Positions 1,880 through 61,611 of a DNA stretch of 64,000 nt are shown piece by piece; the stretch's first letter is position 1; each line of letters opens with the position of its first letter. The notes under the pieces were generated by a model. The model made no database searches and was not told the origin of the DNA. It saw nothing but the letters and a program-made list of their open reading frames with translations. The position numbers were made by a program, and so were the translations under genes. Origin of the DNA: Sphyrna mokarran (lineage: Eukaryota); NCBI GenBank assembly GCA_024679065.1, contig JAGIQG010000016.1, positions 2,108,001 through 2,172,000 on the forward strand, in the 5' to 3' direction.

Positions 1880-2000
1880 AGAATGGGTCTGTGTAACAGG
1901 ATCGAGGAACTGAATGGCCTCCTCCTGTTCCTGTGTAACAGGCTCGAGGGGCTGAATGGGGCCTCCTCCTGTTCCTGTGTAATGGGGGATCCTTCCTGTC
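1880..2000 (+). repeat. Short array of the ~43-bp CTCCTCCTGTTCCTGTGTAACAGGCTCGAGGGGCTGAATGGGGC repeat
   Basis: Same unit as arrays at 44.9, 46.1 and 50.5 kb. Confidence 0.8.
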
Positions 2001-2013
2001 TAGATGGGTCTGA

Positions 2014-2240
2014 TGTACAGATGCCGGCGTTGGATTGGGGTGGTAAGAACTCAGTAAGAATTTAGCAACATCAATTTATAATCCAACCGATTTATTTGAT
2101 AGTAAAAAAGCAAGCTTTCGACTCTGTGTCTTCCTCAGGCAAATGCAGTGTTCTGGTCTGCATTTGCCTGAGGAAGACACAGAGTCGAAAGCTCGCTTTT
2201 TTACTATCAAATAAATCGGTTGGATTATAAATTGGTGTTG
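2014..2240. mobile_element. Palindromic Penelope-like insertion with hammerhead-type motifs
   Basis: 86-bp inverted arms (2063-2148 / 2158-2243), 9-nt loop, 14-bp direct repeat CTAGATGGGTCTGA at 2000-2013 and 2241-2254; CTGAGGA-A-GACacagaGTC-GAAA-GCTC core at 2168-2194. Confidence 0.85.
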
Positions 2241-2493
2241 CTAGATGGGTCTGAACAGAGTGCAGTAGAATTGAAGCATCTCTTATACGGGATTGGAACC
2301 CAGCCTGCTTGAGATAAGGTCCAACATTCCAATAGCCTTTGAGTAAAAGTTTGTGTTGTATTGCCCACCTGGGTTTGGCAATCTGGCTGAGTTTTCTGCA
2401 GTTCCACCTGACAATCTGTTCATTCAGACCAGACAGGGAACATCACCCACTCCCTGAGCCCCATACCGCATAGCAAAGATCTCAACAACTCAC

Positions 2494-4029: not shown

Positions 4030-4550
4030 CTCCTCCACTGACCTCTCTCCCTCACTGAACTTGCCCTCTTTCTCTGACCCCTCCCCTCACTTACCCCCTT
4101 TTCTGACACCCCCCACTGACCCTTCCCCCTCACTAACCTGCCTCCTCATTGACCCCTCCTCCTCCTGAACCCTGCCACCCTCACTGACCCTGCCCCTCAC
4201 TGACCCTTCCCCCTCACTGACCCTTCCCCTCACTGACTCTTCCTCTCAGACCCCTCCCCCTCACTGACACATCCCTCTCACTGACCATTCCCCTTCATTG
4301 ATCCTGCCCCCTCACTGACCGCTCTCACTCACTAACCACTTCCTTTCACTGACCCTCCATCTCACTTACCCCTCCCCCGGCTAGAGCCTCCCATCCACAA
4401 CTGCAAAAAACACCACACCACCTGCCGTANNNNNNNNNNNNNNNNNNNNNNNNNNNNNNNNNNNNNNNNNNNNNNNNNNNNNNNNNNNNNNNNNNNNNNN
4501 NNNNNCTCCCTGACCCCTCCTCCTCACTGACCCTTCCCCCTGAGGCTCCT
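4030..4550. repeat. Degenerate CCCCTCACTGAC pyrimidine-rich repeat containing an assembly gap (N 4430-4505)
   Basis: Repeated ctcactgaccc units; 76 Ns. Confidence 0.85.
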
Positions 4551-4648
4551 CCCCCTGTTGCCCCGATCTCCCTCTGAGGGGGTTATATTTGCTGTTTATT
4601 TGTCGGTTTTTTGAGGTTTTGATGTATTTAATTCTCTCTCCCGCTCAC

Positions 4649-4732
4649 CTGCACATCTTCATTCCGCAGCTCGTCGATCAGCACGGCTATGGGGTACAGA
4701 GAATCATCACCAACCGCCGAAGAGGCGGCCAT
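4649..4732 (-). CDS. PPP2R1A: PP2A scaffold subunit A, coding exon 1 (84 nt): MAASSAVGDDSLYPIAVLIDELRNEDVQ
   Basis: Hallmark N-terminus DDSLYPIAVLIDELRNEDVQ; ATG at 4732-4730 in GCTATGG context; CAG/GTGAG donor. Confidence 0.96.
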
Positions 4733-15790: not shown

Positions 15791-16234
15791 TGTGGGTTGT
15801 TGGTTATAGACAAAGTGTAAATCGACCTGCCTTCTCGATAGAATTCTGCTCAGGAAATATAACACAAATACATTTGATAAAGGCAAAGTATCGATGCATA
15901 AACAAGACTGAGAATTAGGGATCAAAAGTATTTTATGAAAAATTGAAGCAACGTATGATAAAATGTAAAATGATGAGGAAATTGTTTTGACCTGGACTAA
16001 TTCAGCTCCAAACATGCTTTCCTGAACTCTATAATTTGCAATGATCTTTCTGTAAATATTCACTTTGAATGACAGAATAAGAATTGCCTCAAGTACACAG
16101 CCAGCAATATGAAAAACAATTCCTTTTTATTTAATATCTGAGCATTGTAAAACATCAAAATTAACTTCAAAGACACATGATAAAGAAAACTTAATTAATG
16201 CTGATGCTTTGATGCAGTACCGAGAGAGTGCTGC

Positions 16235-16370
16235 ATGATGTTGAGATGCCAGCGTTGGGCTGAGGTAAAACACAAAAAAATCCCACAACACCAGTTTAAA
16301 ATCCAAACAGGTTTATTTGTAGCAAACGCCACAAGCTTTCGGGACAGCCTGTCCCTTCGTCAGGTGGCTG
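16235..16370 (-). mobile_element. Single Penelope-like terminal fragment with hammerhead-like core
   Basis: Minus strand CCTGACGAAGGGACAGGCTGTCCCGAAAGCTTGTG...AATAAACCTGTT...GGCATCTCAACATCA, homologous to the palindrome arms. Confidence 0.7.
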
Positions 16371-16950
16371 GGAATGTTGCATGTCAGAGAGTCAGTACTG
16401 AGTGAGTGCTGTACTGTCAGAGCATTAGAAATGAGGGAGTGCTGCACTGTCAAAGGGTCAATACTAAAGGAGTGCCGCACTGTCAGATGGTCTTTATTGA
16501 AGTTGTGCTGCACATCAGAGAATTAATACTGAGGCAGTATCGCACAGTCAGAAAGTCAGTGCTGAGGGAGCGCCGCACTGTCAGAGGATCAGTGCTGAGG
16601 GAGTGCCGCACTATCAGAGGGTCAGTGCTGAGGGAGTGCAGCACTGTCAGAGGAGCAGTGCGGAGGGAGTGCCGTACTGTCAGAGGATCAGTGCTGAGGG
16701 AGTGCAGCACTGTTGGAGGATCAGTGCCGAGGGAGTGCCGTACTGTCAGAGAGTCAGTACTGAGGGAGTGCCGCATTGTCAGAGGATCAGTGCTGAAGGA
16801 GTGCAGCACTGTTGGAGGATCAGTGCTGAGGGAGTGCTGTACTGTCAGAGAGTCAGTACTGACGGAGTGCCGCACTGTCAGAGGATCAGTGCTGAGGGAG
16901 TGCCACATTGTTGGAGGATCAGAACTGAGGTAGTTCTGCAGCCTCAGAGA
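16371..16950 (+). repeat. 33-bp satellite (CACTGTCAGAGGGTCAGTGCTGAGGGAGTGCCG), array 1
   Basis: Tandem 33-mers giving spurious RECRTVRGSVL ORFs. Confidence 0.93.
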
Positions 16951-17751
16951 GTCACAGTGACCACCAATTCATAAGCATTTCATTGGCTGTGAAGCATTTT
17001 GGGATGTCCTGATGTGGTGAAAAAGGCTAGGGAAGTGCAAATCTTGCTTTTTTATAAATCAGGCAACTGAATGTGTTCTAAGAGCAAATGCCCTTAAATT
17101 CAGTCAAAGAGGATGTTCCCAAGGAGCATCTTAATGAAGGGAAGAAGAGGGAGAGGTTCAGGATGTAGAGTTTTTTTTTGAGGAGGGGATTGATGAAAGT
17201 TGATTTGAAAGAGAGAGAGATGACACACAACAAGGGCTGACATGGAAACCAGGAGGGGAAGTTGTGCAGTCAACAATTTACTGGGAAAAGTATCGAGGGA
17301 ACAGGAGTTGGCCCTCATGGACAAGGTGTGTTTAGAGAGCGAATGAGAGGAGAGTGAAGACAACTGTGGAAATATGAGAATTCAGGGCTACGGCTGGAGT
17401 GGGATGGGGATGGGGAAGTTTGGGCTAATGGGCTGGTGAATGGGAGGGAATGGGATTGAATTTGTCCGTTCTGTCCTGGTGGATCATCGATCAATGCTGA
17501 AAGACATTTCCAATCAGAATGGAGAGGAGGAGTTTTCTAGCAGCGAGGAACAACCTGAAGGAAGAGAGACAAACTGAAATACAGAGAATTATCTCAGAGA
17601 GATCATTTCAAAGATATCAGATTATAACAAGAGCTTTAAAGCTGGTTTAGAGACTGAGACCCTGTGAATTTTTGGAAAGTAAGTGGAAGTTTTGAATGAT
17701 TCTCAAGCTCTTTGTTCTCACCACACTGCGGGTGTCTCTTTCTCACTCAGT

Positions 17752-18085: not shown

Positions 18086-18639
18086 ATGTTAGTGTACCTT
18101 TAAGAGTTGTTTTTAATTCATGGTCACAGCTTTAGATGATGTCATTACTGGAAGAATAAATAATGGGCAGGTCAGGTGTTAAGAGATTTTTCAGGTTTTA
18201 CTTTGAGTTCTGGCTTGTAGTGTTAGAAGCGTAGCTGAACAAAGTCTCTCTGTTGTTATTGTGAAGATTTTACCAGTTAGCTGAAAGCACAGCTTATTGT
18301 ATCGTGGAGTAAAGAATCTGCATTTTTGTGTTTTGGGGAGCTGATCTAAATGCAAACTACTCTGAGTTTTCGAGATCATTTGAAATTAGCATTCAACCAA
18401 TCGAACTGAATTCCAGTATCAAGTGAGCCTGAGCTTGTGCAGTGATAAATCAGTGATAAAGGGTTTTGATTGGAACATCTGATATATATTATTATGGATT
18501 ATACATTAGTGATATTGTTTTATTTTTGTTTGTAATTGATTAAAGTTCTTGTTCATTTTCTTACTATACTTGAAACCTATATTCTTAAATATAATTTAAA
18601 ACTATATTTTTTGTTTGATAAATGCTCCCTCGTGAATCT

Positions 18640-19280
18640 TTGACAGTGCTGTATCATCAGGTCAGTACTGTGGGAGTGCCGCACTGTCAGAGGGTCAGTG
18701 CTGAGGGAGTGCCGCACTGTCAGAGGGTCAGTGCTGAGGGAGTGCCGCACTGTCAGAGGGTCAGTGCTGAGGGAGTGCCGCACTGTCAGAGGGTCAGTGC
18801 TGACGGAGTGCCACACTGTCAGAGGGTCAGTGCTGAGGGAGTGCCGCACTGTCAGAGGGTCAGTGCTGAGGGAGTGCCGCACTGTCAGAGGGTCAGTGCT
18901 GAGGGAGTGCCTCACTGTCAGAGGGTCAGTGCTGAGGGAGTGCCGCACTGTCAGAGGGTCAGTGCTGAGGGAGTGCCGCACTGTCAGAGGGTCAGTGCTG
19001 AGGAAGTGCCGCACTGTCAGAGGATCAGTGCTGAGGGAGGGCCGCACTGTCAGCAGGTCAGTGCTGAGGCAGTGTTGCACTGTCAGAGGGTCAGTGCTGA
19101 GGGAGTGCCGCACTGTCAGAGGGTCAGTGCTGAGGGAGTGCCTCACTGTCAGAGGATCAGTGCTGAGGGACTGCCACACTGTCAGAGGTTCAGTATTAAG
19201 GGAATGCCACACTATTAGAGGATCAGTGCTGAGGGAGTACTGCATTGTTAGAGAGTCAGTATTGAGGGAGTGCTGCACTG
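18640..19280 (+). repeat. 33-bp satellite, array 2 (highly homogeneous, about 19 copies)
   Basis: Tandem 33-mers. Confidence 0.95.
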
Positions 19281-19557
19281 AAGTGAAACAAATCACATTC
19301 ATCCTAACCAAATTCAGTGTAAAAAGCTTATGATTTATAAAAATTTTGACATTTCTGCTCTGTTCCATAGCATATTATTAAGACTAAATGGGATTGGTTT
19401 TGACTATTTTTTCTGTTAAGAAGTGATTCCTGACATTGAGTCAGTGTTAATTTTAAACTTCAGACATTTTTTGCTGGACTGCCCACTCTACAGGAAATGA
19501 TTTCTATCTATTTTCATATTATTTGAGGAAATGTATTCCAGTCAATGTATTACTCAC

Positions 19558-23099: not shown

Positions 23100-23890
23100 T
23101 GGTCAGTACGAGGAAATGCTGTTTGGTTAGTAGGTCAGTATCAAGGGAATGCTGCACTGTTGCAGCGACAGCACCAAGGGAATGCTGCATTATTGTCGGG
23201 TCAGTACTGAGGAAGTGTTGCACAGTCGCAAGGTCAGTACTGAGTCAGCGCCGCACTGTTGCATATCAGTATTGAGGGAGTGCTGCATTGTCGCAGGGTC
23301 GAGACTGAGTGAGCGTTGCACTGTCGTGGGGTCAGTATTGAGGAAGTGCCGCACTGTTAGAGAGTCAATACCAAGGGAATGCCACACTGTCAGAGGATCA
23401 ATACTGAGGGAGTGGTGCATTGTCAGATGGTCAGTACTGAGGGAGTGTCGCATTGTCAGAGAGTCAGTGCTGAGGGAGTGCCGCGTTGTCAGAGAATCAG
23501 TACTGAGGGAGTGCCACACTGTCAGAGGGTCAGTACTGAGGATGTGCCACACTGTTAGAGGGTCAGTGCTGAGGGAGTGCTGCACTGTCAGAGGGTCAGT
23601 ACTGAGGGAGTGTCGCATTGTCAGAGGATCAATACCGAGGGAGTGCTGCACTGTCAAAGGATCAGTACTGAGGAAGTGCTGCACTCTCAGAGAGTCAGTA
23701 CTGAGGGAGTGCTGCACTGTCGGAGGGTCAGTACTGAGAGAGTGCCACACTGTCAAAGGATCAGTGCTGAGGGAGTGCTGCACTCTCAGAGAGTCAGTGC
23801 TGAGGGAGTGCTGCACTGTCAGAGGGTCAGTGCTGAGGGAGTGCTGCACTGTCAGAGGGTCAGTACTGAGGGTATGCTACACTGTCAGAT
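23100..23890 (+). repeat. 33-bp satellite, array 3
   Basis: Tandem 33-mers, more diverged at the left end. Confidence 0.93.
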
Positions 23891-24469
23891 TTGCCATCTT
23901 TCACAATATTAAAATGTGGCCATAGTTAATCTGTGAGGTGACAGAAAAGACTATTTGATTTAATCCAAAGCAGATACTCATTCTGGTTCTTACCAGTATT
24001 CATCAGGAAAAAGAGTTTGTTCACAGCCTGATTTTCCACACTAGTGGTATAACATGTCGATCTATACATCTGAACCAACAAGGCTTGCTGCAGCCACGAC
24101 CCACCTGAAGAAGGCCTGGGGCTGCCTACGGCATTCAGGACGGATGCTGGAATGCCTCAGTGGGTTGGAGCATGTATATTAGGTTCAGTGACACTGAGGA
24201 TATCCATCTTCCAGCCTCAGAATGTTTCTGGAAATCCATTGTCTTTCCTCAGCAATAGGTTGGTAATGTCAATCATCCCTTCAGTATGGCACTTGAGTAT
24301 GATAGCACAAAGCCCCTGGACATATTTACACCAAGGACAACCTATGTTGGATAATAATCTGGTCCATATCATAAAAGTTTATCCCAGTTGGGAAAGTTCA
24401 GCCTGAGGTAGACTGTTGCAGCTTAATGTAGGATAAGTAATGTCCATGGTTTGAGGCTTTATGAGTGGA

Positions 24470-25995
24470 AAATAATGTCTTATAAATTTGATTGAGTTTT
24501 TTGAAGGGGTAACCAAAAAGATAGATGAGACCAGCGCAGTTTATGTTGTCTGCATAAGGCCTTTGACAAGATACTGCAGAACAGGTTGTTGCATTAAGTT
24601 AAATCTCACAGGATCCACGGTGACATAGCTAAATGGATCCAAAATTGGCTTGATGACAGAATAAGTAAGAAGTCTCACAATACCAGATTAAAGTTCAACA
24701 AGTTTATTTGATAGTAAATCCACAAGCTTTTGGAAAACTGTTCTTTCTTCAGGTGAGTGCAAAGTCCTGATCAGAAATTCATCTGACAAAAGAACAGCAT
24801 TCAGAAAGCTTGTGGGTTTACTATCAAATAAACTTGTTGGATTTTAACCTGGTGTTGTGAGACTTCTTACTGTATTTACCCCAGTCCAACACTGGAATCT
24901 CCACATTGATGACAGAAGACAGAGGGGTGGTTTTAGTGAGTTGTTTATTCAAACTAGTGGACAGTGAAGAAGGTTATTTAGGATTACAACAGGATCTTGA
25001 TCAATTGGGCCCTTAGGCTGATGAATGGCAGATGGAGTTTAATTTAGAAAATTGTGAGGTGATTCATTTTAATAGATTAAACTAGGGCAGGACTTACTCA
25101 GTTAATGGTAGGGCACTGGGGAGAATTATAGAACCGAGATCTAGGAGTACATGTTCAAAGCTCCTTGAAGATAGAGTCATAGGTGGACAGAGTGGTGAAG
25201 AAGGCATTCGGTTTCATTGGTCAGAACATTGAATACAGGAGTTGAAGTTGCACAAGATATTGATAAGGCCATACTTGGAATATTGTGTACAGCTCTGGTC
25301 ACCCTATTGTAGAAAGGATATTATTAAATCGCAAGAGTACAGAAAAGATTTACTAGGATGCTACCAGGACTTGAGTTATAAGAAGAGGTTGGATAGGCTG
25401 GGACTTTTTTTCTGGAGCGTAGAAGGCTGAAGGGTGATCTTAAAGAGGTCTATAAAATAACAAGGGGCACAGATCAGCTAGACAGTCAATATCTTTTCCC
25501 AAAGCTATGGGAATCTAAAACTAGACGCTATAGGTTTAAGGTGAGAGGGGAGAGATACAAAAGGGTTCAGAGGGACAATTTTTTCACTCAGAGGGTAGTA
25601 AGTGTCTGGAACAAACTGTCAGAGATAGTAATAGAGGTGATACAATTTTGTCTTTTAAAAAGCATTTAGACAATTACATGTGCAAGATGAGTATAGAGAT
25701 TCCCACCAGTCTCTACATTCAAAGGATTATCCTCCACCATTTCCATCAACTCTAGCATGATGCTACAACCCAACACATCTTCCCCTCACTGCCCCTGTCA
25801 GCATTCCACAGGGATCTCTATCTCTAGGACATCCTGGTCCACTCCTCCATCACATCCAACATTTCATCCCTGTCCATGGCACTCCCATGCAATCATAGAA
25901 CATAGGCAGTTGGAACTAGCTTAGTGGTAAAAAAAAAAGAGTGGCATGGACAAGTTGGGCTAAAGGGCCTGTTTCCATGATGTAAATCTCTACGA
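24470..25995 (+). mobile_element. Decayed CR1 LINE with nested insertions (palindrome at 24662-24905; Penelope-like ORF fragment ~25700-25895)
   Basis: RPYLEYCVQLWSP etc.; nested piece translates to PTSLYIQRIILHHF...HIFPSLPLSAFHRD, resembling Penelope-like ORFs. Confidence 0.8.
24662..24905. mobile_element. Older, diverged palindromic Penelope-like insertion
   Basis: Imperfect inverted arms AGTAAGAAGTCTCACAA...TTGTGAGACTTCTTACT; 12-bp direct repeat TTGATGACAGAA at 24650-24661 and 24906-24917. Confidence 0.8.
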
Positions 25996-29388: not shown

Positions 29389-29514
29389 TATTGATAATCA
29401 CATGCTGGGTTATAATGAGCTGTGTTTTGTGTTAATGTGTAAATGTCATAGTTTGTGTTAATTCCCATTGAGTGTTGAATATGAATTGTTGAGTAATTAC
29501 AAGACAGAACTTAC

Positions 29515-29880
29515 TAGAAACGTGAAGCCGAGATACAGGGTAGTAGCTGTAACTATTCCTTCTGTCAAATTCTATTCTGAAATAATAAGGCCCAGCATCT
29601 TCTCGTGTGATGTTGTTTATAATGAGGGAACAGTCGCCATCTTTCAGTTCTCCAGACAGCCGGGTCCGATGGCGGAACTGTGGCAATATGCGATTGTGAT
29701 CCTTGGAGTGAAAGGCTATAGATGATCTTCTCCATTTCTCGTTATTAAACCAGATTGCATCTCGCGATTGGTTTACCAAATCTGATGGATAACTGTAATG
29801 ACATGGAATCTGTACACATAAACCTTCCTGTGCTGTCACCTTTTGTGGAGTGTCGACTTTCCATTTCTGTGACAGTCCAG
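29515..29880 (-). CDS. Siglec-like receptor A, V-set Ig exon (366 nt) with predicted sialic-acid-binding Arg
   Basis: QEGLCVQIPC, GDCSLII and DAGPYYFRIE match the Siglec V-set signature (extra Cys, B-E intrasheet disulfide, F-strand Arg); TTTCTCTCTCCAG acceptor, GTAAGT donor, phases 1/1. Confidence 0.95.
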
Positions 29881-30184
29881 CTGGAGAGAGAAATATCAAT
29901 ATTTAACACTGGCATTCAGCAGGGTTGCCTTGAAAGGGCTTCTGCACCCTCTGACCTTTCTTTGAGCAGCAATGTACTGCAATGCCCACTACCTCTGCTC
30001 AGACCACATTCTCTTTCAAACATAGATAACCACTAAAACAAAATCGCTGGGTCACTACTTTAGAAGTCACCATGTAATCATTGTGGGGAGTGCCTTCAGC
30101 ATACAGAGATTCCTCAGACAAAGAAGATCCAATGAGATTCCTTGGACAATGAGGATCCAACGAGGTTCCTTAGACAATAAGGAT

Positions 30185-30510: not shown

Positions 30511-33464
30511 GCTTTCTCAGGCGATGACTTTGCTGACTGTTCTCCATTGTATTTTCAGTTGGGGAATATAATTGTATTTAGTATTTAAGTAAATTACGTT
30601 TTCGAGACCCCACGTTAACCTGACCCTACTGCAACAGGCACTGTCAAACACACAAGAAAGCGCCTGTTGCCGGACCTCTATATATGTCAGAGGTGTCGCT
30701 ATATTGGCTTCACAGTTTCACAGGTGGTATTACTTTGTTTTGTTAAGTGTGAACTGAAACCCATGTGTTAGGCTGAAGATTCCACCTATTCCCCTGCAGT
30801 ATTTATGCATTGATGCAGCAATGATAAGGGCTCACTGGCAAGGAATTTATTTCACGGAACCATAAAATAAGACAGCACAGCAAAAGACCATTCGGTCCAT
30901 CGTGCTTTTGCAGTTCCTTGAAGGAGGAAATTCAATAGCACCTCTACACAGCGACAGGAAAAGAGCATCACTGGGAAAAAAGCAAGGCGGGGGGAGGTGA
31001 GAGAGTTTAATAAATCGCACAGATCTACCAAAGGGCCAGCATAGGCATAATGGGCCGAATGGTCTATTATTGTATTGGATTATTCTATGGTTCCATGAGT
31101 TTTATCTGTATTGCAGTTAAGTTCTAATACAGAAGAAGACAGAGGCACAGTGGTAATGAGCTAGTGATTCAGAGTCCAGGCTAATATTCTGGACGTTTGG
31201 GTTAAACTGCTATCCATGATAGCTGGTAGAAACTGAATTCAATCTGGAATTGAAAGCTAATCTCTGCAATTGTGATCGAGAAATAACGATTGATTGACAT
31301 TAAAAACATTGGGTTCAATAATGTCCCTTTTAGTGAAGAAAAACTGCCATCTTTACCCAGTCAAGTCTACATGTGACTCCAGATCCACAGCAATGTGCTG
31401 ATGCTTAACTGCCCTTCTGAAATGACTGAGGGAGACACTTAATTCGAGGGACACTGAGGATTGTGCAACAAATGTTGGTGCAGCCAGTGACACCCACAAG
31501 CCATGAAAAATATGAGAGATAAGCTGATAGTTTTGTTATCAAACTGACGGTCTTGTTGTCTTTTTGATGTTTGCTTGGCTGGCTGCTATGATGACAGGAA
31601 GTCATTCTGTCTATTCTAAGCTCTGCTGCCTTGCAATCATGTGATTTCTCAGTAAAATTCTTATTTCAGAGCATCTCCAATTCTGAACTGTTCTCCATCC
31701 CCAAGGTTTAGGAAGAGAATTGCAGAGCTTAGAGTTGAGGCAACTGAAGGCACGGCTCCTAGTGGTAGAATGATGGGAACTGGAGAAACACAGGAGGCTT
31801 GGTTAGTGGCCACAGAGGGCTGAAGGGCCCATGGGAAGAAATAGAGAGAGGGAAGGTTATAGGGGCTAGAAGAGATTACAGAGATACAGAGGGGTGTAAA
31901 GGCTGAATGGTTATAATGGTAAGGAGGGCTATAGGGAATGGAAGAGGTTAAAGACAGAAGAAGGGTTAACATAGAAACATAGAAACTAGAAACAGGAGGA
32001 GACCATTCGGTCCTTCAAGCCCGCTCTGCCATTCATTTTGATCATGGCTGATCGTCAAATTCAATATTCTGATCCCCTTTCCTCCCAGATCCCTAGATCC
32101 CTTTAGCCCCAAGAGCTAAATCTATTTTCTCCCTGAAATGAGACAATGTTTTGGCTTCAATTACTATCGCTGGGAGTAAATTCCACACATTTGCCACTCT
32201 CTGGGTGAAGAAATTTCTCCTCATCTCAGTCCCAAAAGGTTTACCCCTTATCCTCAGACAATGACTCCCTAGTTCTGGACACCCATCATTGGAATCTAGC
32301 TTGTCTAACTCTTAGAATTTTGTAAGTTTTTATGAGATCCCCTCTCACTCTTCTCTCATGCAGTGAAGATATCCTAACTGATTTAGTCACTCCTCATATG
32401 ACAGATTTGCCATCCCATGAATCAACCTGGTAAGCCTTTGCTATACTCCCTCTACAGCAAGAACATCCTTCTTCAGATAAGGACAACAAAACTACACATA
32501 CTATTCCTGGTGTGGCTTCACAATGCCCCATGCAATTGCAGCAGAACATCCTTATCCCTGTATCCAAATTCTCTCGCTATGAAGGCCGATACCATTTGCT
32601 TTCTTTACTGCCTGCTATATCTGCACACTTATTTTCAGCGACTGATGCATGAAGACACCAAAATCTCGTTGAGTATCCATCTCTGTCAACTTACACTGAT
32701 TCAAGTAATAATCTGTCTTCCTATTAATGCTGCCAAAATGGATAACCTCACATTTATCCACATTATATGCATCTGCCATGCAGATGCCTACACATTTAGC
32801 CTGTCCAAATCACGGTGAAACATCTTTGCATCCTCCTCACAGCTCACCCTCCCACCCAACTTTGTATCATCTGCAAACTTTGAGATAGTATATTCAGTTT
32901 CTTCTTCCAAATCATTAATATATAATTGAACAGTTGGGGTCCTAGCACAGATCCCTGCAGAACCCCACTAGTCACTGACTGCCAATCAGAAAAAGATCCA
33001 TCTTTGAAGATGTGACTAAACACATGAATTACTAAACTTCACTAAAGTGTGAAGTTCATTTTGGCAGGTCAAATATAAATGACTTGGAAGAGGGAGTAAG
33101 TGGAGTGATCAGCAAGTTTGCAGACGATACAAAGATGGCTGGACTTGCGGATAGTGAGGAGCATTGTCAGGCGATGCAGCAGGACATAGATAGGCTGGTA
33201 GCTTTGGCAGATAGATGGCAGATGGAATTCAATCCTGATAAATGCAAGGTGATGCATTTTGGGAGAAAGAATGTAGCGGGGAGGTATATGATAAAGGGTA
33301 AACCTATTATGGTAAGTATGTCCCTGTCAGGCAAGGAGGAAATGGTTGAGTAAGGGAACCATGGTGTACTAAAAAAGTTAATTCACTGGTTAAAAGGAAA
33401 AAGGAGGCTTATGTCAGGATGAGGCTTGAAGGCTCAGTTAGTGCACTGGATAGCTATAGATTAG

Positions 33465-33707
33465 AACTCAGTAAGAATCTAGCAACACCAATTTTAAATC
33501 CAACCGATTTATTTGATAGTAAATTTGCGAGCTTTCGACACTGTCTTCGTCAGGCAAATGCAGCGTTCTGGTCTGAATTTGCCTGACGAAGACAGTGTCG
33601 AAAGCTCGCAAATTTACTATCAAATAAATCGGTTGGATTTAAAATTGGTGTTGCTAGATTCTCACTGAGTTCTTACTACCCCAGTCCAACACCGGCATCT
33701 CTACATC
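33465..33707. mobile_element. Young palindromic Penelope-like insertion carrying hammerhead motifs on both strands
   Basis: 101-bp arms (33463-33563 / 33573-33673), 2 mismatches, 9-nt loop; 15-bp direct repeat ATAGCTATAGATTAG at 33450-33464 and 33708-33722. Confidence 0.92.
33576..33614 (+). ncRNA. Minimal type I hammerhead ribozyme motif (mirror copy on minus strand ~33559-33523)
   Basis: AAUUUGC-CUGACGA-A-GACaguGUC-GAAA-GCU-C-GCAAAUU: 7-bp stem I, conserved core, 3-bp stem II, self-complementary AGCU stem III, predicted cleavage after C33607. Confidence 0.75.
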
Positions 33708-36700
33708 ATAGCTATAGATTAGCGAGGAGGAAGCTAAAGAGTGAGTTGAGAAGAGCTAAAAGAGGACACGAGAAGACTTTGGCTGATAGGATCAAGGAGA
33801 ATCCTAAAGCTTTCTTTAGATATGTTAAGAATAGAAGATTGGTCAGGGCAAGATTAGGGCCAGTCATAGACAGCAGTGGGAAGTTGTGCGTGGAGCCTGA
33901 AGAGATTGGAGAGGCACTGAACAAATATTTCTCTTCAGTATTCACGCAGGGAGACGTAAATGTAGTTGTGGAGAACACTGGGATACTGGGTTGTAAACTG
34001 GAAAGTATTGAAGTAGACAAGGAGGAGGTGCTAGATATTCTTGAGGGTTTGAAGTTAGATAAGTCCCCTGGGCTGGATGGATTTACCCTAGGATTCTCTG
34101 GGAGGTGAGAGAGGTGATTGCAGAGCCTCTGGCTCTGATCTTCAGGTCATCATTGGTTACAGGTATAGTGCCGGAAGACTGGAGGAGAGCGAATGTGATC
34201 CCATTGTTCAAGAAGGGGAATAGAGACTTTCCAGGGAATTATAGACTGGTGAGTCTTACTTCTGTTGTGGGCAAAGTATTGGAAAGAATTATTAGGAATA
34301 GGATTTATAGTTATTTAGAGAGTAACGAATTGATTGGGGATAGTCAGCATGGTTTTGTGAAGGGTAGGTCGTGCCTTACTAACCTATTGAGTTTTTTGAA
34401 AAAGTGACCAAAGAGGTGGATGGGGGTAAGGCGGTTGATGTGGTATATATGGACTTTAGTAAGGCGTTCGATAAGATGGCCCATGGAAGGCTTCTGCAGA
34501 AAATGCAGATGTATGGGATAGAGGGTGATTTAGCTAATTGGATTAGGAATTGGCTAGCAGATAGAAGACAGAGGGTGGTGGTTGATGGGAGATATTCATC
34601 GTGGAGTTCGGTTACTAGTGGTGTACCTCAGGGATCTGTTTTGTGGCCCCTGCTGTTTGTAATTTTTATAAATGATCTGGATGAGGGTATTGAAGGATGG
34701 ATTAGTAAATTTGCAGATGACACCAAAGTCGGAGGAGTGGTAGATAGTGAAGAGGGGTGTTATAGTTTGCAGACAGACGTGGACAAGTTGCAGAGCTGGG
34801 CCGAGAGGTGGCAAATGGAGTTTAATGTGGAAAAGTGTGAGGTAATTCACTTTGGCAGGAATAACAAATGTGTAGAGTATAGGGCTAATGGTAGGACTCT
34901 TAATAGTGTTGATGAACAGAGGGATCTTGGTGTATATGTGCATAGATCCCTGAAAGTTGGCAATCAAGTCGATAAGGTTGTTAAGAAGGCATACGGAGTC
35001 TTAGTTTTATTGGTAGGGGGATTGAATTTCGGAGCCGCAACGTCATGTTGCAACTGTACAAAACTCTAGTGTGGCCGCACTTGGAGTATTGTGTACAGTT
35101 CTGGTCCCCGCATTATAAGAAAGATGTGGAGGCATTGGAGAGGGTACAGAGGAGGTTTACCAGGATGTTGTCTGTATGAGGGCAGGTCTTATGAAGAGAG
35201 GCTGAGGGTTTGAGGTTGTTTTCATTAGAAAGAAGGCAGCTAAGAGGAGACCTTATTGAAACATATAAGATGATTAGAGTTTAGATAGGGTGGACAGTGA
35301 TAGCCTTTTTCCTAGGATGGGAAAGCTAGCACGAGGGGACATAGCTTTAAATAAGGGGTGGTAGTTATAGGAGATGTCAGAGATAGGTTCTTTACCCAGA
35401 GGGTGTAAGGGTATGGAATGCCCTGCCTGCTGCAGTTGTAGATGCGCCAAGTTTGGTGGCTTTTAAGAGGTTAGTAGATAAGTTTATGGATGAAAAGGGA
35501 ATGGTTTAGGTTAGAGGGTCATTGCTTTTTCTTAATTGGTCGGCGCAACATCGAAGGCCGAAGGGCCTGTTCTGCGCTGTAATGTTCTATGTTCTATTAA
35601 GAGTATAGAAACGCAGAGGGACCTTGGGGTGCAGGTGCACAAGTCTCTGAAGCTGGCAGAGCAAGTGGAGAAGGTTGTGAAGAAAGTATATGGTATGCTA
35701 GCCTTTATAGGAAGGGATATAGAATACAAGAGCTGGCCTTTAATGTTGCAGTTGTATAAAACATTGGTTAGACCTCATTTGGAATACTGCGTCCAGTTCT
35801 GGTCAACTTACTACTGGAAGGACGTGGAGACTCTAGAGAAAGTGCAGAGGAGGTTTACCAGGATGCTGCCTGGTATGGAAGGTCTGAGTTACGAGGAGAG
35901 GTTAGGCAAATTGGGACTGTTTTCCTTAGAAAGACATAGACTCAGAGGAGATCTAATAGAGGTGTACAAGATTATGATGGGTATAGATAGAGTAAACAGG
36001 GTTAAGCTTTTTCCCAGGATGGACTCAAATAGCACGAGGGGTCACGGGGCTTAGGGTAAGGGCGGTAAGGTATAATTTGGATGCTAGAGGGAGTTTTTTC
36101 ACACAGAGGGTGGTGGGGGTATGGAATGCGCTGCCAAGTAAAGTGGTGGAGGCAAGCACTCTGGAGTTATTTAAGAAATACTTAGATGGGCACATGAACA
36201 GAATGGGAATGGAGGGGTATAGAGAACTGATTTAAAATAGGGATCATGAGCCTTGGGAGTCCCTGGGAAGTGTGTAAATGGATGATGATATTGACGTACT
36301 TGTTTTTATCCTACAGGTGCTTTGGTCCACCTTGTTGTCTAACAAGGGGCATTCACGCTTTGGGTCGTGAGAGGGCTGCTCTTGGATATTTTTCGAGAGT
36401 ATTGTAGTGCTTCACGTTGTTAGTGTATGCTTGACCTGGACCATTTGATGGGCAACACGACAGTTCAGTGACTATCGCTGTGCTGTGCAGATACATGGAT
36501 TTGGGCCTGTGTCTGTGGGAGTTTGTGCATTCTCCCCATGCTTGCGTGGGTTTTCTTTGGGTGCTCTGGTTTCCTCCCACATCCCAAAGATGTTCTGTTA
36601 GGCTTACTGGCAAAACAAATTCTGTCTAAATTGTCTCAAATTTGGTTTTTCATCTATAAACATAGACAGGGATCACGGGTAGAGGCGGGAACATTGAGGT

Positions 36701-44879: not shown

Positions 44880-46810
44880 TCCTGCTGTTCCAATGTAACA
44901 GGCTCAAGGGACTGAATGATCTCCTTCTGTTCCTATGCAACAAACTCATGGGGCTGAGTGGGGCCTCCTCCTGTTCCTGTGTAACAACTCGAGGGACTGA
45001 ATGGGGCCTCCTCCTGTTCCTGTGTAACAGGCTCGAGGGGCTGAATGGGGCCTCCTCCTGTTCCTGTGTAACAGGCTCGAGAGGGTCTAGATGGGTTTAA
45101 TCATGTTGCTGTACTACAGGCACACAAGGATTGAACGCGTCTTCCTATCACTGTGTAACAAACTCATTGGAGCTGACTGGACCTCTCCTGTTCCCAGTGA
45201 TATATCAAGGTAGTGAGAAAATAGTATTTTTGTCTGAATTTCTATATGAAATATAGGGCTAATGGAAGGACCCTTAATAGTGTTGTTGAGCAGAGGGATC
45301 TTAGGGTACAAGTACATAGCTCTTTGAAAGTTGGCACCCAGGTTGATAAAGTTGTTAAGAAGGCGTACGGTGTGTTAGCTTTTATTGGTAGAGGGATTGA
45401 ATTTAGGAGCCGTGAGGTTATGTTACAACTGTACAAGACTCTGGTGCGGCCGCACTTGGAGTATTGCGTACAGTTCTGGTCGCCGCATTATAAGAAAGAT
45501 GTGGAAGCATTGGAAAGGGTGCAGAGGAGGTTTACCAGGATGTTGCCTGGTATGGTGGAAGGCCTTATGAGGAAAGGCTGAGGGACCTGAGGTTATTTTC
45601 ATTAGAGAGAAGAAGGTTACGCGGTGACCTAATTGAGGCGTATAAGATGATCAAGGGATTGGATAGGGTGGATAGTGAGAGCCTTTTTCCTCGGATGGTG
45701 ATGACCACCACGAGGGGACATAACTTTAAATTAAGAGGTGGTAGTTATAGGACGGATGTCAGAGGCAGGTTCTTCACACAGAGGGTGGTGAGGGCGTGGA
45801 ATGCCCTGCCTGCAGCAGTTGTGGACTCGCCTACTTTGGGGGCATTCAAATGTTCGGTGGATAGGCATATGGATAATATTGGAATAGTTTAGGTTAGAGG
45901 GTCCACTGGCCGGCGCAACATCGAGGGCCGAAGGGCCTGTACTGCACTGTAATGTTCTATGTTCTATGAATTTACCTGCAAACTTTTAAATCTTAATGTG
46001 CAGATCCTGTAATCCTGTATTTCTGCTCACATCTGGAGTGTAATTGACAAGAATCAATTATTTTATTGTTCTCCCCCTGTTCCTGTGCAATAGGCTCAGG
46101 GGGGCTGAATGGGGCCTCTTATTCCTGTGTAACAGGCTCAAGGGGCTGAATGGCCTCCTCCTGTTCCTGTGTAACAGGCTCCAGGGGGCTGAATGGGACC
46201 TCCTCCTGTTCCTGTGTAACAGGCTCCAGGGGCTGAATGGCCTCCTCCTGTTCCTGTGTAACAGGCTCAAGAGGCTGAATGGGACCTCCTCCTGTTCCCC
46301 TGTAACAGGCTCGAGGGGGCTGAATGGGATCTCCGCCTGTTCGTGTGTTATAGGTTCGATGGAGGCTAAATGGGGCATCCTCCTGCTCTTGTGTCACAGA
46401 CTCGAGGGTTTAAAGGAAGCTTCCTCCTGCTGCTGTGCAGCAGGCTACAGGGGGCCTGAATGGTGCCTCCTTTTTTTTGTAATAGGCTCGATGGGGGCTG
46501 AATGGCCCCCCCCTCCTATTCCTGTGTAACAGGCCCAAGGGGAGCTGAAAACGCTGCTTCCTGTCCCTGTGTAACATCTCAAGGGCTAAATGGCCTCCTC
46601 CTGTTCCTGTGTAATAGGCTCAAGATGGCTGAATGGGACCTCCTCCTGTTCTTGTCTAATACATTCGAGGAGGAGCTGAGTGGACCTCCTCCTATTCCTG
46701 TGTGATAGCGTCAAGGGGCTAAGTGGTCTCCTCCTGTTCTTGTATAACAGGCTCGAGGAGCTGAATGTGGCCTCCTCCTCCTCTTGTGTAACAATCTTGA
46801 GGGACTCAAT
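44880..46810 (+). repeat. Two arrays of the ~43-bp CTCCTCCTGTTCCTGTGTAACAGGCTCGAGGGGCTGAATGGGGC satellite (44880-45085, 46070-46810) separated by a CR1
   Basis: Tandem units; both arrays preceded by the same duplicated flank (44790 vs 45968). Confidence 0.88.
45245..45968 (+). mobile_element. Young 5'-truncated CR1
   Basis: MKYRANGRTLNSVVEQRDL...; TTCTATG tail; near-identical to 48658-47932. Confidence 0.95.
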
Positions 46811-46889
46811 GAGGCCTCAAACCAGGACAGTTACTGAGATTTTGCAAGCCCAGGCAAGTTGTGGTGGTTACATATAGTGTGACATGAAC

Positions 46890-47152
46890 CCAAGATGATG
46901 GCTTGAGACAATTCAGACTTCTTTAATCTGTACTTAACCCTCTCTCCACTCTCATGGTCTGTACCTATAAAGATTTGATTACCTGTTTAGATTCACATTC
47001 TAATCATTATCTTGTAAATTGAGCCTGTGTCTAAATATGCCCTTTTGGTGAACCCAACTCTCTACTCACCTGATAAAGGAGCAACGCTCTGAAAGTTTGT
47101 GCTCCCAAATAAACCTGTTGGACTTTAACCTGGTGTTGTGAGACTTCTTACT
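46890..47152 (+). mobile_element. Penelope-like terminal repeat, longer non-palindromic copy
   Basis: CACCTGATAAAGGAGCAACGCTCTGAAAG (decayed hammerhead core) then AATAAACCTGTTGGACTTTAACCTGGTGTTGTGAGACTTCTTACT as in the 24.7-kb arms. Confidence 0.75.
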
Positions 47153-47931: not shown

Positions 47932-49035
47932 AACATAGAACATAGAATTTTACAGCGCAGTACAGGCCCTTCGGCCTCGATGTTGCGCCGGCCAGTGGAC
48001 CCTCTAACCTAAACTATTCCAATATCATCCATATGCCTATCCACCGAACATTTGAATGCCCCCAAAGTAGGCGAGTCCACAACTGCTGCAGGCAGGGCAT
48101 TCCACGCTCTCACCACCCTCTGTGTAAAGAACCTGCCTCTGACATCCGTCCTATAACTACCACCTCTTAATTTAAAGTTATGTCCCCTCGTGTTGGTCAT
48201 CACCATCCGAGGAAAAAGGCTCTCACTATCCACCCTATCCAATCCCTTGATCATCTTATACGCCTCAATTAGGTCACCGCGTAACCTTCTTCTCTCTAAT
48301 GAAAATAACCTCAGGTCCCTCAGCCTTTCCTCATAAGGCCTTCCCACCATACCAGGCAACATCCTGGTAAACCTCCTCTGCACCCTTTCCAATGCTTCCA
48401 CATCTTTCTTATAATGCGGCGACCAGAACTGTACGCAATACTCCAAGTGCGGCCGCATCAGAGTTTTGTACAGTTGTAACATAACCTCACAGCTCCTAAA
48501 TTCAATCCCTCTACCAATAAAAGCTAACACACCGTACGCCTTCTTAACAACTTTATCAACCTGGGTGCCAACTTTCAAAGAGCTATGTACTTGTACCCCA
48601 AGATCCCTCTGCTCGACAACACTATTAAGGGTCCTTCCATTAGCCCTATATTTCATATGCCTGTTATTCCTACCAAAGTGAATCACCTCACACTTATCCG
48701 TATTGAATTCCATTTACCACCTCACGGCCCAGCTCTGCAACCTACCTATGTCCCTCTGCAAACTGTAACATCCATCCTCACTATCTACGACTCCCCCCAC
48801 TTTGGTATTGTCAGCAAATTTACTAATCCAACCCCCTTCACCCTCATCTAGGTCATTTATAAAAATGACAAACAGCAGTGGCCCTAAAAGAGATCCTTGA
48901 AGTACACCACTTGTAACTGCACTCCAGGTTGAATATTTCCCATCAACCACCACCCTCTGTCTTCTATCAGCTAGCCAATTCCTAATCCAAACTGCTAAAT
49001 CACCTTCAATCCCATGCATCTACACTTTCTGCATT
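47932..49035 (-). mobile_element. Young 5'-truncated CR1 with TATTAA target-site duplication
   Basis: RT ORFs 49019-48714 and 48713-48009; TATTAA at 47926-47931 and 49036-49041; empty site visible at ~39730. Confidence 0.95.
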
Positions 49036-50192: not shown

Positions 50193-50539
50193 TGGAACTC
50201 AGATGTTACGTATTGAAATTCATGTCCAACAGATGCTATGAGAATGTAACTTGGGAGAGGTTATGTGACATACCTCCTCAATATTGGATGCAGGATGACT
50301 AGAAATATGACATTTAATTGAAGTTGGAATTCTACCTCAAGGCGACCTCTGTCAATTTGTTCTTCCCAATCCACATGAAATCATCCAGTATTTAATGTTC
50401 TGCCTTCATTATCTCCTGATATATTTTCCATTTACAGTAGAGTTACTATTCGGGGGCCTATACATTACCCCCAGCTTGTGCCCTCTTCCCCTTACTTCTT
50501 TCTTACCTTCAGCCATATAGATTCTACATCTTGAGGTGG

Positions 50540-51160
50540 TGAATGGGGCCTCCTCCTGTTCCTGTTTAACAGTCTCAAGGGACTGAATGGGGCCTCCTCC
50601 TGTTCTTGATTAACAGGCTCAAGGAGAACTGAATGGGGCCTCTTCCTGTTCCTGTGTAACCGGCTGGAGGAGCTGAATGGGGCCTCCTCCTCTTCCTGTG
50701 TAACAGGCTCGAGGGGCTGAGTGGGGCCTCCTCCTGTTCCTGTGTAACAGGCTCGAGGGGCTGAATGGGGCCTCCTCCTGTTCCTGTGTAATAGACTCGA
50801 AGGGCAGAATGGGGCCTCCTCCTGTTCCTGTGTAACAGGCTCGAGGGGGGTGAATGGCCTCCTCTTGTTCCCGTGTAACAGACTTGAGAGGACTGAATAG
50901 TTTCCTCCTGTTCCTGTGTAACTGGCTCAAGGGACTGAATGGGACTTCCTCCTGTTTCTGTGTAACCGGCTCAAGGAGGGCTGAAAGGGACCTCCTCCTG
51001 CTTTGGTGTAACAGGCTTGAGGGGAGTTGATTAGACGTCCTCCTGTTCCTGTGTAACAGGCTCGAGGGGCTGAATGGGGCCTCCTTCTGTTCCTGTGTAA
51101 CAGGCTCGAAGGGCAGAATGGGGCCTCCTCCTGTTCCTGTGTAACAGGCTCAAGGAATGA
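50540..51160 (+). repeat. ~43-bp satellite array (about 14 copies)
   Basis: Same unit as 44.9/46.1 kb. Confidence 0.9.
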
Positions 51161-51259
51161 ATGTTCTATGGGAACAAGAAGAGGATGACCATTGGAAATG
51201 AGAGTATAAATGTCATTATTATTTAAAGTTTATTTTTTATTCTTAGTGTTAAAAGCAGG

Positions 51260-55600: not shown

Positions 55601-57600
55601 CAAAAAATTCAGTCAAGTTTGTGAGACATGATTGTCATTCACAAAGCCATGCTAACTGTCCCTAATCAGACTTGCTTCTCTAAATGTCAGTAGATCCTGT
55701 CTCTCAAAATACCTTCCAACAACTTACCCACCACAGATGTGAGGCTCACTGGCCTGTAGTTCCCAGGTTTTTCCTGCAGCCCTTTTTAAACAAAAACATA
55801 ATACTTGTCACTCTGCAATCTTCAGGCACCTCACCTGGGACTATTGGTGATTCACATATCTCTGCCAGGGGACCTGCGATTTCCTCCCTAGCCTTCCATC
55901 ATGTCCTGCAATATACTTCATCAGGTCCCGAGGATTTACCTACCTTGATGCGCTTTAAAATTTCAGCATCTCTTTCTCTGTATTGTGTATGCTACACAAG
56001 ACATCACTGTTTACTTTCCCAAGATCCCTAATATTTATACTTTTCTCAACCAGTAAATACTGATGAGAAATATTAATTTAGGATCTCACCCATCTCTTGT
56101 GGATCTGCATATAGATGACCATGTTCATCCTTAAGAGGACCTAATTTCTCTCTTGTTACTCTTTTGCCCTCTATGTACTTCTAGAAGCTCTTTGGATTCT
56201 CCTTTGCCTTGTCTGCCAAAACAATCGGGGGTCCCCTTTTTGCTCTCTTGACTTCTCTCTGAACTCTACTGCTACACCCTCTATACTCTTCAAGACATTT
56301 ATTTGATTCCAGCTGCCTGTGCTGGTCATGTACCTCTTTTTCCTTCTTGATCAAGGCCTCAGTAACCCGAGTCATCTAGGGTTCCCTATTTCTGCCAGCC
56401 TTGCTCTTCATTCTCAGAGGAATGTGCTTACTCTGAACCCTGGTTAACACACTTCTGAAAGCCTCCCACTTACCAGAGATGCCTTTGCCTCCCCATAGAT
56501 TCCCCCAATTAATTTTTGAAAGTTCCTGCCTGATACCATCAAAGTTGGTCTTGTCCCAATGTAGAATTTTAACCTTTGGGCTGGATCAACCATTCTCCAT
56601 GGCTATCTTAAAACAAATACAATAATAGAAAGTGATCCCTCATTAACACTTTTGTCACCTGCCCTTCCTTATTTCCCCCAAGGAGGTCAAGTTTTGCCCC
56701 CTCTCAGGTCGGGCAATCCTCATACTGAATGAGAAATTCTTCCTGAATACAGTCAACAAATTTCTCTCTATCCAACTCTCTAATATTAGGGCTGTCCCAG
56801 TCAATGTTGGGAAAGTTAAAACCTCCTACTTTTACCACCCTATTTTTCATGGAGCTATCTGTAATCTCCTTATATATTTGCTCCTCAATTTCCCACTAAC
56901 TATTTGGGGTCCTATAGTACAACCTTATCAAAGTGATTTCAGTGTGTCACAATTTGATATGGCTCCTGCTCTGACCAAGACCGCAAGCAACTACAATAAA
57001 GGCAAAATACTGCAGCTGCTGGGATCTGACACTTCAACAGAAAATGCTGGGAAATCTCAGCATGTCTGACAGCATCTGTGGAGAGAAAACGGAGCTAACG
57101 TTTTGAATTTAGATCACTCTCCACAAATGCTGTCAGAGCTGCTGAGATTTTACAGCATTTTCTATTTTCGTGCCACAACAAACTACAAATGGTCGTGAAT
57201 GTAGCCCAATGCATCACGCAAACCAACCTCCGATTCATTGACTCTGTATATACTTCCTGCTGCCTCAACAAAGCAGCCAGCATAATCAAGGACACCATGC
57301 ACTCCAGACATTCTTTCTTCCATCTTCTCCCAGGAAAAAAAATACAAAAGTCTTTGATTGCATACCAACCAACTCAAGAACAGCTTCTTCTCTGCTGCCA
57401 TCAAACTTTTGAATGGCCCTGCCTTATATTAAGTTGATCTTTCTCTACACCATAGCTATGACTGTAACACTACATTCTGCACTCTCTTCTTTCTTTCTCC
57501 TCTATATACTCAGTGCACAGTATGTCTTGTCTGTGTAGCGCAAGAAAGAATACTTTTCACTGAATCCCAATACATGTGACAATAATAAATCAAATCAAAT
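52700..57600 (+). mobile_element. Decayed Rex1/Babar-like LINE interrupted by a minus-strand CR1 (54381-56940) and a small palindromic insert (56997-57180)
   Basis: ALKSIIMKCFKRL, LFIDYSSAFNTIIP, KFADDT; host resumes at ~56945; CR1 has SGVPQGSVLGPLLF. Confidence 0.85.
56997..57180. mobile_element. Palindromic insert of a second Penelope-like end family
   Basis: AGAAAATGCTG..AATCTCAGCA..TCTGACAGCATCTGTGGA inverted as TCCACAAATGCTGTCAGA..TGCTGAGATT..CAGCATTTTCT; AACTACAA repeated at 56989-56996 and 57181-57188; related single copy ~62940-63085. Confidence 0.65.
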
Positions 57601-60737: not shown

Positions 60738-60829
60738 CTGTAATAGAAACAGAAATGATCAGAGAGATAATCAGAGTGATCTGTGTTTAGTATAATTGAT
60801 CCAAATTGAAACTTCCAACCACACTAGAC

Positions 60830-61160
60830 ACCCATTAGTGACTCTGAACGGGGTCCCATTAGTGACTCTGAACGGGGTCCCATTAGTGACACTGAACGGG
60901 ATCCCATTAGTGACTCTGAACGGGGTCCCATTAGTGACTCTGAACGGGGTCCCATTAGTGACTCTGAACGGGGTCCCATTAGTGACTCTGAACGGGGTCC
61001 TATTAGTGACTCTGAACGGGATCCCATTAGTGACTCTGAACGGGATCCCATTAGTGACTCTGAACGGGATCCCATTAGTGACTCTGAACGGGATCCCATT
61101 AGTGACTCTGAACGGGATCCCATTAGTGATTCTGAACAGGGTTCGATTATTGATCCTGAC
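60830..61160. repeat. 24-bp minisatellite (CCCATTAGTGACTCTGAACGGGGT/AT), about 13 copies
   Basis: Near-perfect tandem units in last intron of receptor B. Confidence 0.95.
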
Positions 61161-61611
61161 AGAGCTTGCTTATTCATGCTGAATGTGGTTGGCGATGTCA
61201 ATTTTTGAGTTGCGTTTGGGTTTGCTAACCATCATACAGTCGTGACTGGAGCAACCACATCGATAACCAAGCAACTGTCCATGTGAAAGGCTCAGTAGCC
61301 TATGGTGTGTGACTCACCTTCTGATGACTCAGAGTCCCTGTTACCTCCCAGTTTTTAAAAGAAGGACGTTGATATTCATAGATTTGATGGTTCCTTTTGA
61401 TTTCCTGTTTCCCATTGCCTTTCTTCTGCAAATAGAAATGAATATAGAAGAGTAACAATCAACACCAGGTTTAAGTCCAACCGATTTATTTGATAATAAA
61501 CTCGCAAGCTTTTGAAGTTTGCCCCTTCGCCTGACTCAGTTTATAAAGTCACAACATCAGTAAAGGACAATGTTGGTCCTGGAAGTGAATTCCAATATTT
61601 CCATTACTTAC

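Follow-up and report, generated by a model that had tools for sequence, protein, structure and literature searches.

Candidate miniature Penelope-like elements in Sphyrna mokarran: head-to-head terminal repeats around an inherited asymmetric loop found in both polarities

The window analysed here, a 64,000-nucleotide stretch of the Sphyrna mokarran genome, contains three palindromes that share one asymmetric centre, present in both polarities relative to a tail at one end of the element. Judged by RNA motif and architecture, the features at 2 kb and 33.5 kb are head-to-head pairs of the terminal repeat of Penelope-like elements (PLEs), and the palindromes very probably represent a non-autonomous miniature PLE, in which two head-to-head terminal repeats surround a fixed 17-19-nt spacer and which would be mobilised in trans by a PLE reverse transcriptase/GIY-YIG endonuclease. 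The components of such an element are already known; the new feature is a fixed, inherited spacer with concerted arms and both loop polarities. No description of a fixed-spacer palindromic mini-PLE or of its loop isomers was found in the literature searched, outside which lie Repbase, Dfam and most subscription papers, where consensus entries may exist.

Architecture and assignment of the palindromes

The paired arms of these elements are the three longest close inverted repeats of the window (Table 1). All three copies are flanked by exact direct repeats. At 33.5 kb and at 24.7 kb, once the element and one repeat are taken out, the flanks align without interruption to paralogous LINE sequence. 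For the 2-kb copy no paralogous empty site was found in the window, so that its boundaries are defined by the target-site duplication (TSD) alone. Long palindromes can be artefactual. An assembly or sequencing artefact of the fold-back chimera kind is, however, effectively refuted for these copies, as all three are TSD-flanked, two have paralogous empty sites, and differences have accumulated in the arms.

Table 1. Positions of the palindromic elements, their parts and their non-palindromic relatives within the window
Feature	Position	Strand	Remarks
Left TSD, 2-kb copy	2000..2013	+	14 bp; final 2-3 nt also match element end
PLE-type tail, 2-kb copy (complete end)	2011..2045	-	boundary from comparison with 33.5-kb short arm
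Long arm, 2-kb copy	2046..2148	-	pLTR sense on - strand; paired part 2060-2148
Hammerhead core, left arm, 2-kb copy	2116..2138	-	minimal type I; stem I 2 bp, stem II 3 bp
Asymmetric 9-nt loop, 2-kb copy	2149..2157	+	'flip' polarity relative to tail
Short arm, 2-kb copy	2158..2246	+	core 2168-2190; terminates in 6-nt microhomology with TSD
Right TSD, 2-kb copy	2241..2254	+	14 bp
Solo relative	16234..16370	-	tailed; hammerhead intact, with stems I and II of 5 and 6 bp
Third, older palindrome, divergent subfamily	24650..24917	+	12-bp TSD, 24650-24661 and 24906-24917
Arms of 24.7-kb palindrome	24664-24756 and 24779-24871		87% identical
Centre of 24.7-kb palindrome	24757-24777	+	homologous, 33.5-kb polarity
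Tail of 24.7-kb palindrome	24872-24906		on right; 32-35 nt
Left TSD, 33.5-kb copy	33450..33464	+	15 bp, within LINE; uninterrupted site in paralogue at 27.4-27.6 kb
Tail-less arm, 33.5-kb copy	33463..33563	-	hammerhead core 33533-33553, stem I 6 bp
Asymmetric 9-nt loop, 33.5-kb copy	33564..33572	+	'flop' polarity relative to tail
Tailed arm, 33.5-kb copy	33573..33673	+	hammerhead core 33583-33603
PLE-type tail, 33.5-kb copy	33674..33709	+	34-38 nt
Right TSD, 33.5-kb copy	33708..33722	+	15 bp
Longer relative	46815..47152	+	inverted 5' piece (about 46815-46898), then direct piece
Short rearranged solo fragment	61460..61535	-	3' end near end of 2-kb short arm

An earlier note on this DNA had assigned a "complete terminus" to the left side of the 2-kb feature and to the right side of the 33.5-kb feature, with the other arm truncated. 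Both placements are confirmed, and the complete terminus is the known 30-40-nt PLE tail. The other arm is indeed shorter, but for the most part it has not been cut at an arbitrary point: at 24.7 kb and 33.5 kb the missing stretch measures 32-38 nt, as long as a PLE tail. The 2-kb short arm is the only one of the three that lacks more, about 46-55 nt, and the extra piece at the complete end of this copy accordingly lies beyond the 30-40-nt range; the end of this short arm falls 12-20 nt short of the 33.5-kb tail-less end. All three palindromes are one-tailed and none is two-tailed. In the subfamily of the 2-kb and 33.5-kb copies, a short motif, TTCTTACT, is duplicated at the tail boundary (33660-33680), and it is within this duplicated motif, or immediately past it, that the 24.7-kb, 33.5-kb and 47-kb copies have their tail-less ends.

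The PLE assignment is built on the RNA motif and the architecture. Among the features that mark PLEs, a direct or inverted pLTR arrangement with TSD is present (TSDs of 12-15 bp in 3/3 palindromes), as are a tail of 30-40 nt at one end, seen at 24.7 kb and 33.5 kb, and a minimal type I hammerhead in the terminal repeat. None of the 12 window ORFs scanned for domains contained a PLE-type domain, and a protein search with a 41-codon open frame across arm and tail gave one candidate and none at E <= 10; across these ORFs and this one search, no PLE reverse transcriptase plus GIY-YIG ORF flanked by the pLTR of the palindromes was identified. A scan of bacterial and archaeal genome contigs for the arm motif returned no matches, as expected for a eukaryotic repeat.

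The window is rich in LINE reverse-transcriptase fragments (RVT_1 in 2 of the 12 ORFs scanned), presumably of CR1 type, and apparently LINE 3'-end-like pieces form an imperfect inverted repeat at 30852-31098 (68-nt arms, 75%). A decayed palindrome at 57027-57175, with 59-nt arms (83%) and a 31-nt centre, is unrelated in sequence to the mini-PLE family and resembles what we take to be another family of PLE terminal repeats, minus its ribozyme portion. Coding features include an exon-like ORF end at 4631-4720 (- strand), which we assume to resemble the first exon of a PP2A scaffold subunit gene, and an exon with an Ig V-set/CD22-like domain at 29435-29902 (- strand). An assembly gap of 76 N occupies 4430-4505.

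Hammerhead motifs and non-palindromic relatives

Each arm contains CUGANGA, an extra A, a short stem II, GAA, the palindromic AGCU and stem I. A minimal hammerhead descriptor found five intact matches in the window, all within these elements, and none in any of 100 shuffles. The minimal hammerhead of PLEs has been defined by CUGANGA, an extra nucleotide before stem II, G10.1-C11.1 and a palindromic stem III (PMC4209133), and the motif of these arms, with its additional A following the core and its palindromic stem III, matches that type. Stem I covaries between subfamilies (TTTGC/GCAAA, GCCAC/GTGGC and CTCAC/GTGGG). At the gathering threshold, Rfam gave no match in the window. Ranked by E-value, the 33.5-kb copy produced 15 Rfam matches, all under the gathering score and mostly to generic microRNA-hairpin models, which were rejected as a hairpin effect; the hammerhead family was absent from these 15.

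It had also been proposed that the 2-kb copy, with a stem I of only 2 bp, may be catalytically dead. A stem I of this length is found in both 2-kb arms, compared with 6 bp in the 33.5-kb arms, and a scan of the right arm at 33.5 kb runs to nine positions when G-U pairs are counted. In single-arm folds the probability of the first stem I pair is 0.001-0.003 at 2 kb versus 0.22-0.56 in the 33.5-kb arm; because this pair rarely forms, reduced ribozyme activity of the 2-kb arms is plausible. Catalytic death of this copy, if real, may not matter, because in predicted folds of the whole-hairpin transcript the ribozyme stems of either copy are sequestered (pair probability ~1e-18 or less), because helix I of the D. 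virilis Penelope hammerhead is likewise 2 bp (PMC4209133), and because ribozyme mutants still insert in vitro, with insertion unimpaired (PMC11167929). The degenerate stem I in both arms suggests that cleavage is dispensable for the palindromic mini-PLE family.

BLAST and profile searches of the window recovered six relatives, namely the three palindromes and three non-palindromic copies at 16.2, 47.1 and 61.5 kb. The solo relative at 16 kb is tailed and that at 47 kb is tail-less, and the spacer upstream of the hammerhead is absent from both. The last nucleotide of the direct piece of the 47-kb relative is identical in position to the end of the 24.7-kb short arm. Its inverted 5' piece overlaps the direct piece by 11 nt at the breakpoint (9/11 matching) and resembles second-nick priming, a likeness that is suggestive only because this copy has no TSD (longest direct repeat 5 bp). 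At the three non-palindromic relatives, no exact repeat longer than 7 bp was found as a TSD.

Several observations concern the surroundings of these relatives. On the - strand of the inverted piece (46815-46912), the translation at 46871-46894 ends in a short peptide and a stop, and this peptide presumably resembles the C-terminus of a PLE ORF. The 47-kb relative is enclosed by two inverted LINE fragments (45244-45926 and 47975-48658) that lie about 2 kb apart and are 98-99% identical over about 680 nt; this pair is a recent inverted duplication or conversion. In the relative at 61460-61545, the 5'-most ~9 nt seem to be inverted at the ribozyme core, and the copy is possibly a collapsed palindrome. 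The 16-kb relative is located at the edge of a 33-bp minisatellite array. Arrays of this unit occupy 16424-17053, 18530-19390 and 23110-23900, and arrays with units of 34, 24 and 44 bp occupy 654-1265, 60759-61231 and 50507-51199, respectively.

Loop polarity, concerted arms and routes of formation

On the + strand, the loops read TGTTCTGGT at 2 kb and CGTTCTGGT at 33.5 kb; the two centres read as the earlier note had claimed, and the loops match at 8/9 positions in the same orientation (chance ~2e-4, allowing either orientation and equal base frequencies). Compared with the 33.5-kb centre, the 24.7-kb centre scores 5 in the + orientation and -5 reversed (31 of 20000 shuffles), and compared with the 2-kb centre it scores 3 and -1, respectively (258 of 20000 shuffles). 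The junction is inherited and not random, being common to all three palindromes across an arm divergence of about 30%, in agreement with the expectation that the loop does not vary at random among copies. Self-complementarity of the centre is lowest at 24.7 kb, intermediate at 33.5 kb and highest at 2 kb.

The arms evolve in concert. Arm-to-arm identity is 86/89 (96.6%) within the 2-kb copy and 99/101 (98.0%) within the 33.5-kb copy, and arms compared across these two copies are 85.4-89.9% identical. The 24.7-kb arms match each other at 86-87% and the arms of the other two palindromes at 65-72%. Five diagnostic events separate the 2-kb from the 33.5-kb copy (core C/G, a 2-nt stem II insertion, loop II A/T, AAA/TTT and TA/AT), and all five are present in both arms of each copy, which bears out the claim that such variants are common to the arms of one copy and differ between copies.

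The arm-to-arm differences within these two copies all lie in the tailed arm (5/5; 2060-2148 and 33573-33673; two-sided p ~0.06). The difference beside the 33.5-kb loop agrees with the 24.7-kb centre and is perhaps the ancestral state. RNA editing is not supported as the source of the five: read on the sense strand of the tailed arm, 0/5 are A-to-G changes.

Relative to the complete end, one palindrome is flip (2 kb) and two are flop (33.5 kb and 24.7 kb), each in a different subfamily; flip and flop do not occur together within one subfamily among these three palindromes. Because five diagnostic events separate them, the flip and flop copies derive from different source lineages, and because they belong to different subfamilies, one spacer inversion suffices. 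In full-length PLEs, polarity is supplied by the ORF. Here the asymmetric loop, not an ORF, gives polarity. To a first approximation, flip and flop are therefore a minimal element's version of something already described, namely that inverted PLE insertions can carry the tail on one side or the other (PMC8557442, PMC3846280).

The route that we favour, while holding it somewhat short of probable, uses the two target nicks as primers to rebuild both arms from a single sense arm. The PLE protein would nick the two target strands 12-15 bp apart, and reverse transcription would be primed from each nick with the sense arm of the element RNA as template, beginning at the tailed start site from one nick and at a tail-less site from the other. 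Both cDNAs would cross the spacer into the beginning of the opposite arm and then anneal via their arm sequences, and the loop would stay as a mismatched bubble in which repair or replication could fix either polarity. With both arms copied from one, each round would homogenise them and pass on the spacer, and loop polarity would be independent of the side on which the tail lies. The TSDs, hammerheads, tail-sized asymmetry, shared centre, concerted arms and both polarities are observed; the annealing and bubble step, and the use of this route by the palindromic mini-PLE family, are what we infer. The anole PLE protein, predicted to form a dimer, has been shown in vitro to cleave and extend each of the two target strands, and its two reverse-transcription start sites bound the tail with no strand difference (PMC11167929). 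Solo relatives end with or without the tail, and the 47-kb one stops at exactly the nucleotide where the 24.7-kb short arm stops; the tail-less end thus has the character of a priming site rather than of a random truncation. Coordination of start-site choice must be assumed, because independent choice predicts two-tailed and tail-less copies, yet 3/3 are one-tailed (p = 0.125 at 50:50). The stability of the hairpin RNA (-148 to -183 kcal/mol), which the reverse transcriptase must displace, counts against double-ended priming, and the location of all five arm differences in the tailed arm is not explained by it.

The earlier note had instead made the hairpin itself the replicating unit, copied from either strand with its arms re-homogenised by fold-back synthesis. 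Spelled out as a mechanism, the whole hairpin would be transcribed from either strand, the reverse transcriptase would prime at the tail, the cDNA would fold back past the loop to remake the second arm, and this arm would be joined to the target by microhomology, so that the isomer reflects the strand transcribed. This is unlikely in our view, although the existence of both polarities stands, as do the inherited centre and the concerted arms, which the model explains. It also accounts for the 6-nt microhomology in which the 2-kb short arm terminates, a feature that suits fold-back and microhomology joining at least as well as it suits double-ended priming. Self-priming with possible bidirectional transcription has been proposed for palindromes at inverted PLE junctions (PMC3846280). 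What fails is the derivation of a tailed opposite isomer from a one-tailed master: the other strand of such a master logically yields the same isomer by straight copying or a tail-less one by fold-back, so both tailed isomers require masters tailed on both arms, of which 0/3 were found. Nor does the model predict that the short arms at 24.7 kb and 33.5 kb stop at the tail boundary, or that the direct solo copy at 47 kb ends at the base of the 24.7-kb short arm. De novo formation at each insertion from a non-palindromic source, either an autonomous PLE or a tandem retrozyme, with inversion at a hot spot set by the sequence immediately upstream of the hammerhead, is highly improbable. Identical arms would follow trivially, PLEs typically contain pLTRs that are inverted and 5'-truncated, and an 18-bp or 38-bp palindrome opens some pLTRs (PMC3846280); however, this route alone yields only one loop polarity, and the solo relatives at 16 kb and 47 kb have no spacer upstream of their hammerheads.

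Host processes offer a rather doubtful but somewhat better placed account, in which ordinary palindromic masters have a fixed polarity per subfamily and one strand is copied, while rare DNA-polymerase template switching or recombination between the 90-100-bp arms, in the master or after insertion, turns the spacer round and makes the arms alike. Arm homogenisation and reversible spacer inversion are both reported for template switching between inverted repeats whose arms exceed 9 bp (PMC8604942). A single event in the 2-kb subfamily lineage would give the data with no special transposition step, and the trend in self-complementarity of the centre is as expected from arm extension. Against this, complete homogenisation would be needed repeatedly, given the five of five events and the ~30% divergence to the 24.7-kb subfamily; no inherited arm-specific variant is evident; and the 24.7-kb arms have drifted to 86-87% in place, so that post-insertion conversion is not fast.

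Under double-ended priming the family might be a self-renewing hairpin retroelement, a possible but tentative extension in which the arms are remade at each insertion, the loop passes through a heteroduplex, and flip and flop occur at about 50:50 within each subfamily. The loop would then be a natural strand mark of double-ended PLE integration and would explain the tail at either end of inverted pLTRs. How PLE inverted structures form and how the tail is placed have been stated to be unresolved (PMC8557442, PMC11167929). Loop direction relative to the tail provides a simple genomic marker for how PLEs build inverted copies, and, in a short family with a fixed asymmetric spacer, double-ended priming, fold-back and host inversion each predict a table of counts of their own. 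With at least six relatives in 64 kb, copies should be numerous enough for such counts. If polarity is fixed per subfamily, the finding shrinks to an ordinary PLE derivative.

Comparison with known systems

MITEs are short, palindromic, non-coding and TSD-flanked. Unlike them, the present palindromes have asymmetric ends with a tail on one side, carry PLE hammerheads in their arms and have no symmetric transposase-type inverted repeats; in 3/3 copies, 32-55 extra nt at one end keep the terminal inverted repeats from reaching both ends symmetrically. Parvovirus and AAV flip-flop hairpins have an asymmetric loop in two inverted-complement forms, which arise when the genome ends undergo rolling-hairpin DNA replication with the help of a Rep/NS1 nickase. 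The resemblance that had been suggested to these hairpins holds for the geometry only. The palindromes are internal insertions within LINE sequence, with TSDs, a retroelement tail and ribozyme motifs, and no coding region lies between their arms (12 window ORFs domain-scanned); the TSDs and the tail point to retrotransposition.

Spacer inversion by template switching in yeast is similar in that the loop is inverted and the arms are homogenised, but it is a host mutational process and not a transposition step, and the reported spacers are 2-5 bp and the arms 10-16 bp (PMC8604942). Non-LTR retrozymes, like the palindromes, are short, non-coding and PLE-derived with a type I hammerhead, and they have been reported in a chondrichthyan genome (bioRxiv 10.64898/2026.07.22.740005). 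Retrozymes form head-to-tail tandems whose ribozymes cleave as dimers, and that survey searched tandem repeats only; in the window the units are head-to-head or single, never two or more head-to-tail, and the ribozymes of the palindromes lie on opposite strands and are sequestered in the predicted hairpin. An unclassified palindromic polymorphic insertion of ~90 bp has also been mentioned in a chaetognath (PMC2997562).

The closest counterparts are endonuclease-positive PLEs with inverted pLTRs, such as D. virilis Penelope, A. vaga Pen2/Pen2a and anole Poseidon PAc, with which the palindromes share head-to-head pLTRs, a minimal hammerhead in the pLTR, and a 30-40-nt tail on one end only, on either side, together with a TSD (PMC3846280, PMC8557442, PMC2377424, PMC11167929). 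The palindrome TSDs measure 12-15 bp, compared with the 8-10 bp given for A. vaga PLEs. Unlike these elements, the palindromes have no ORF, the whole insert being ~230-250 nt, and whereas the truncation point of inverted-pLTR PLEs is variable, the junction here is the same 17-19-nt spacer in 3/3 palindromes across ~30% divergence.
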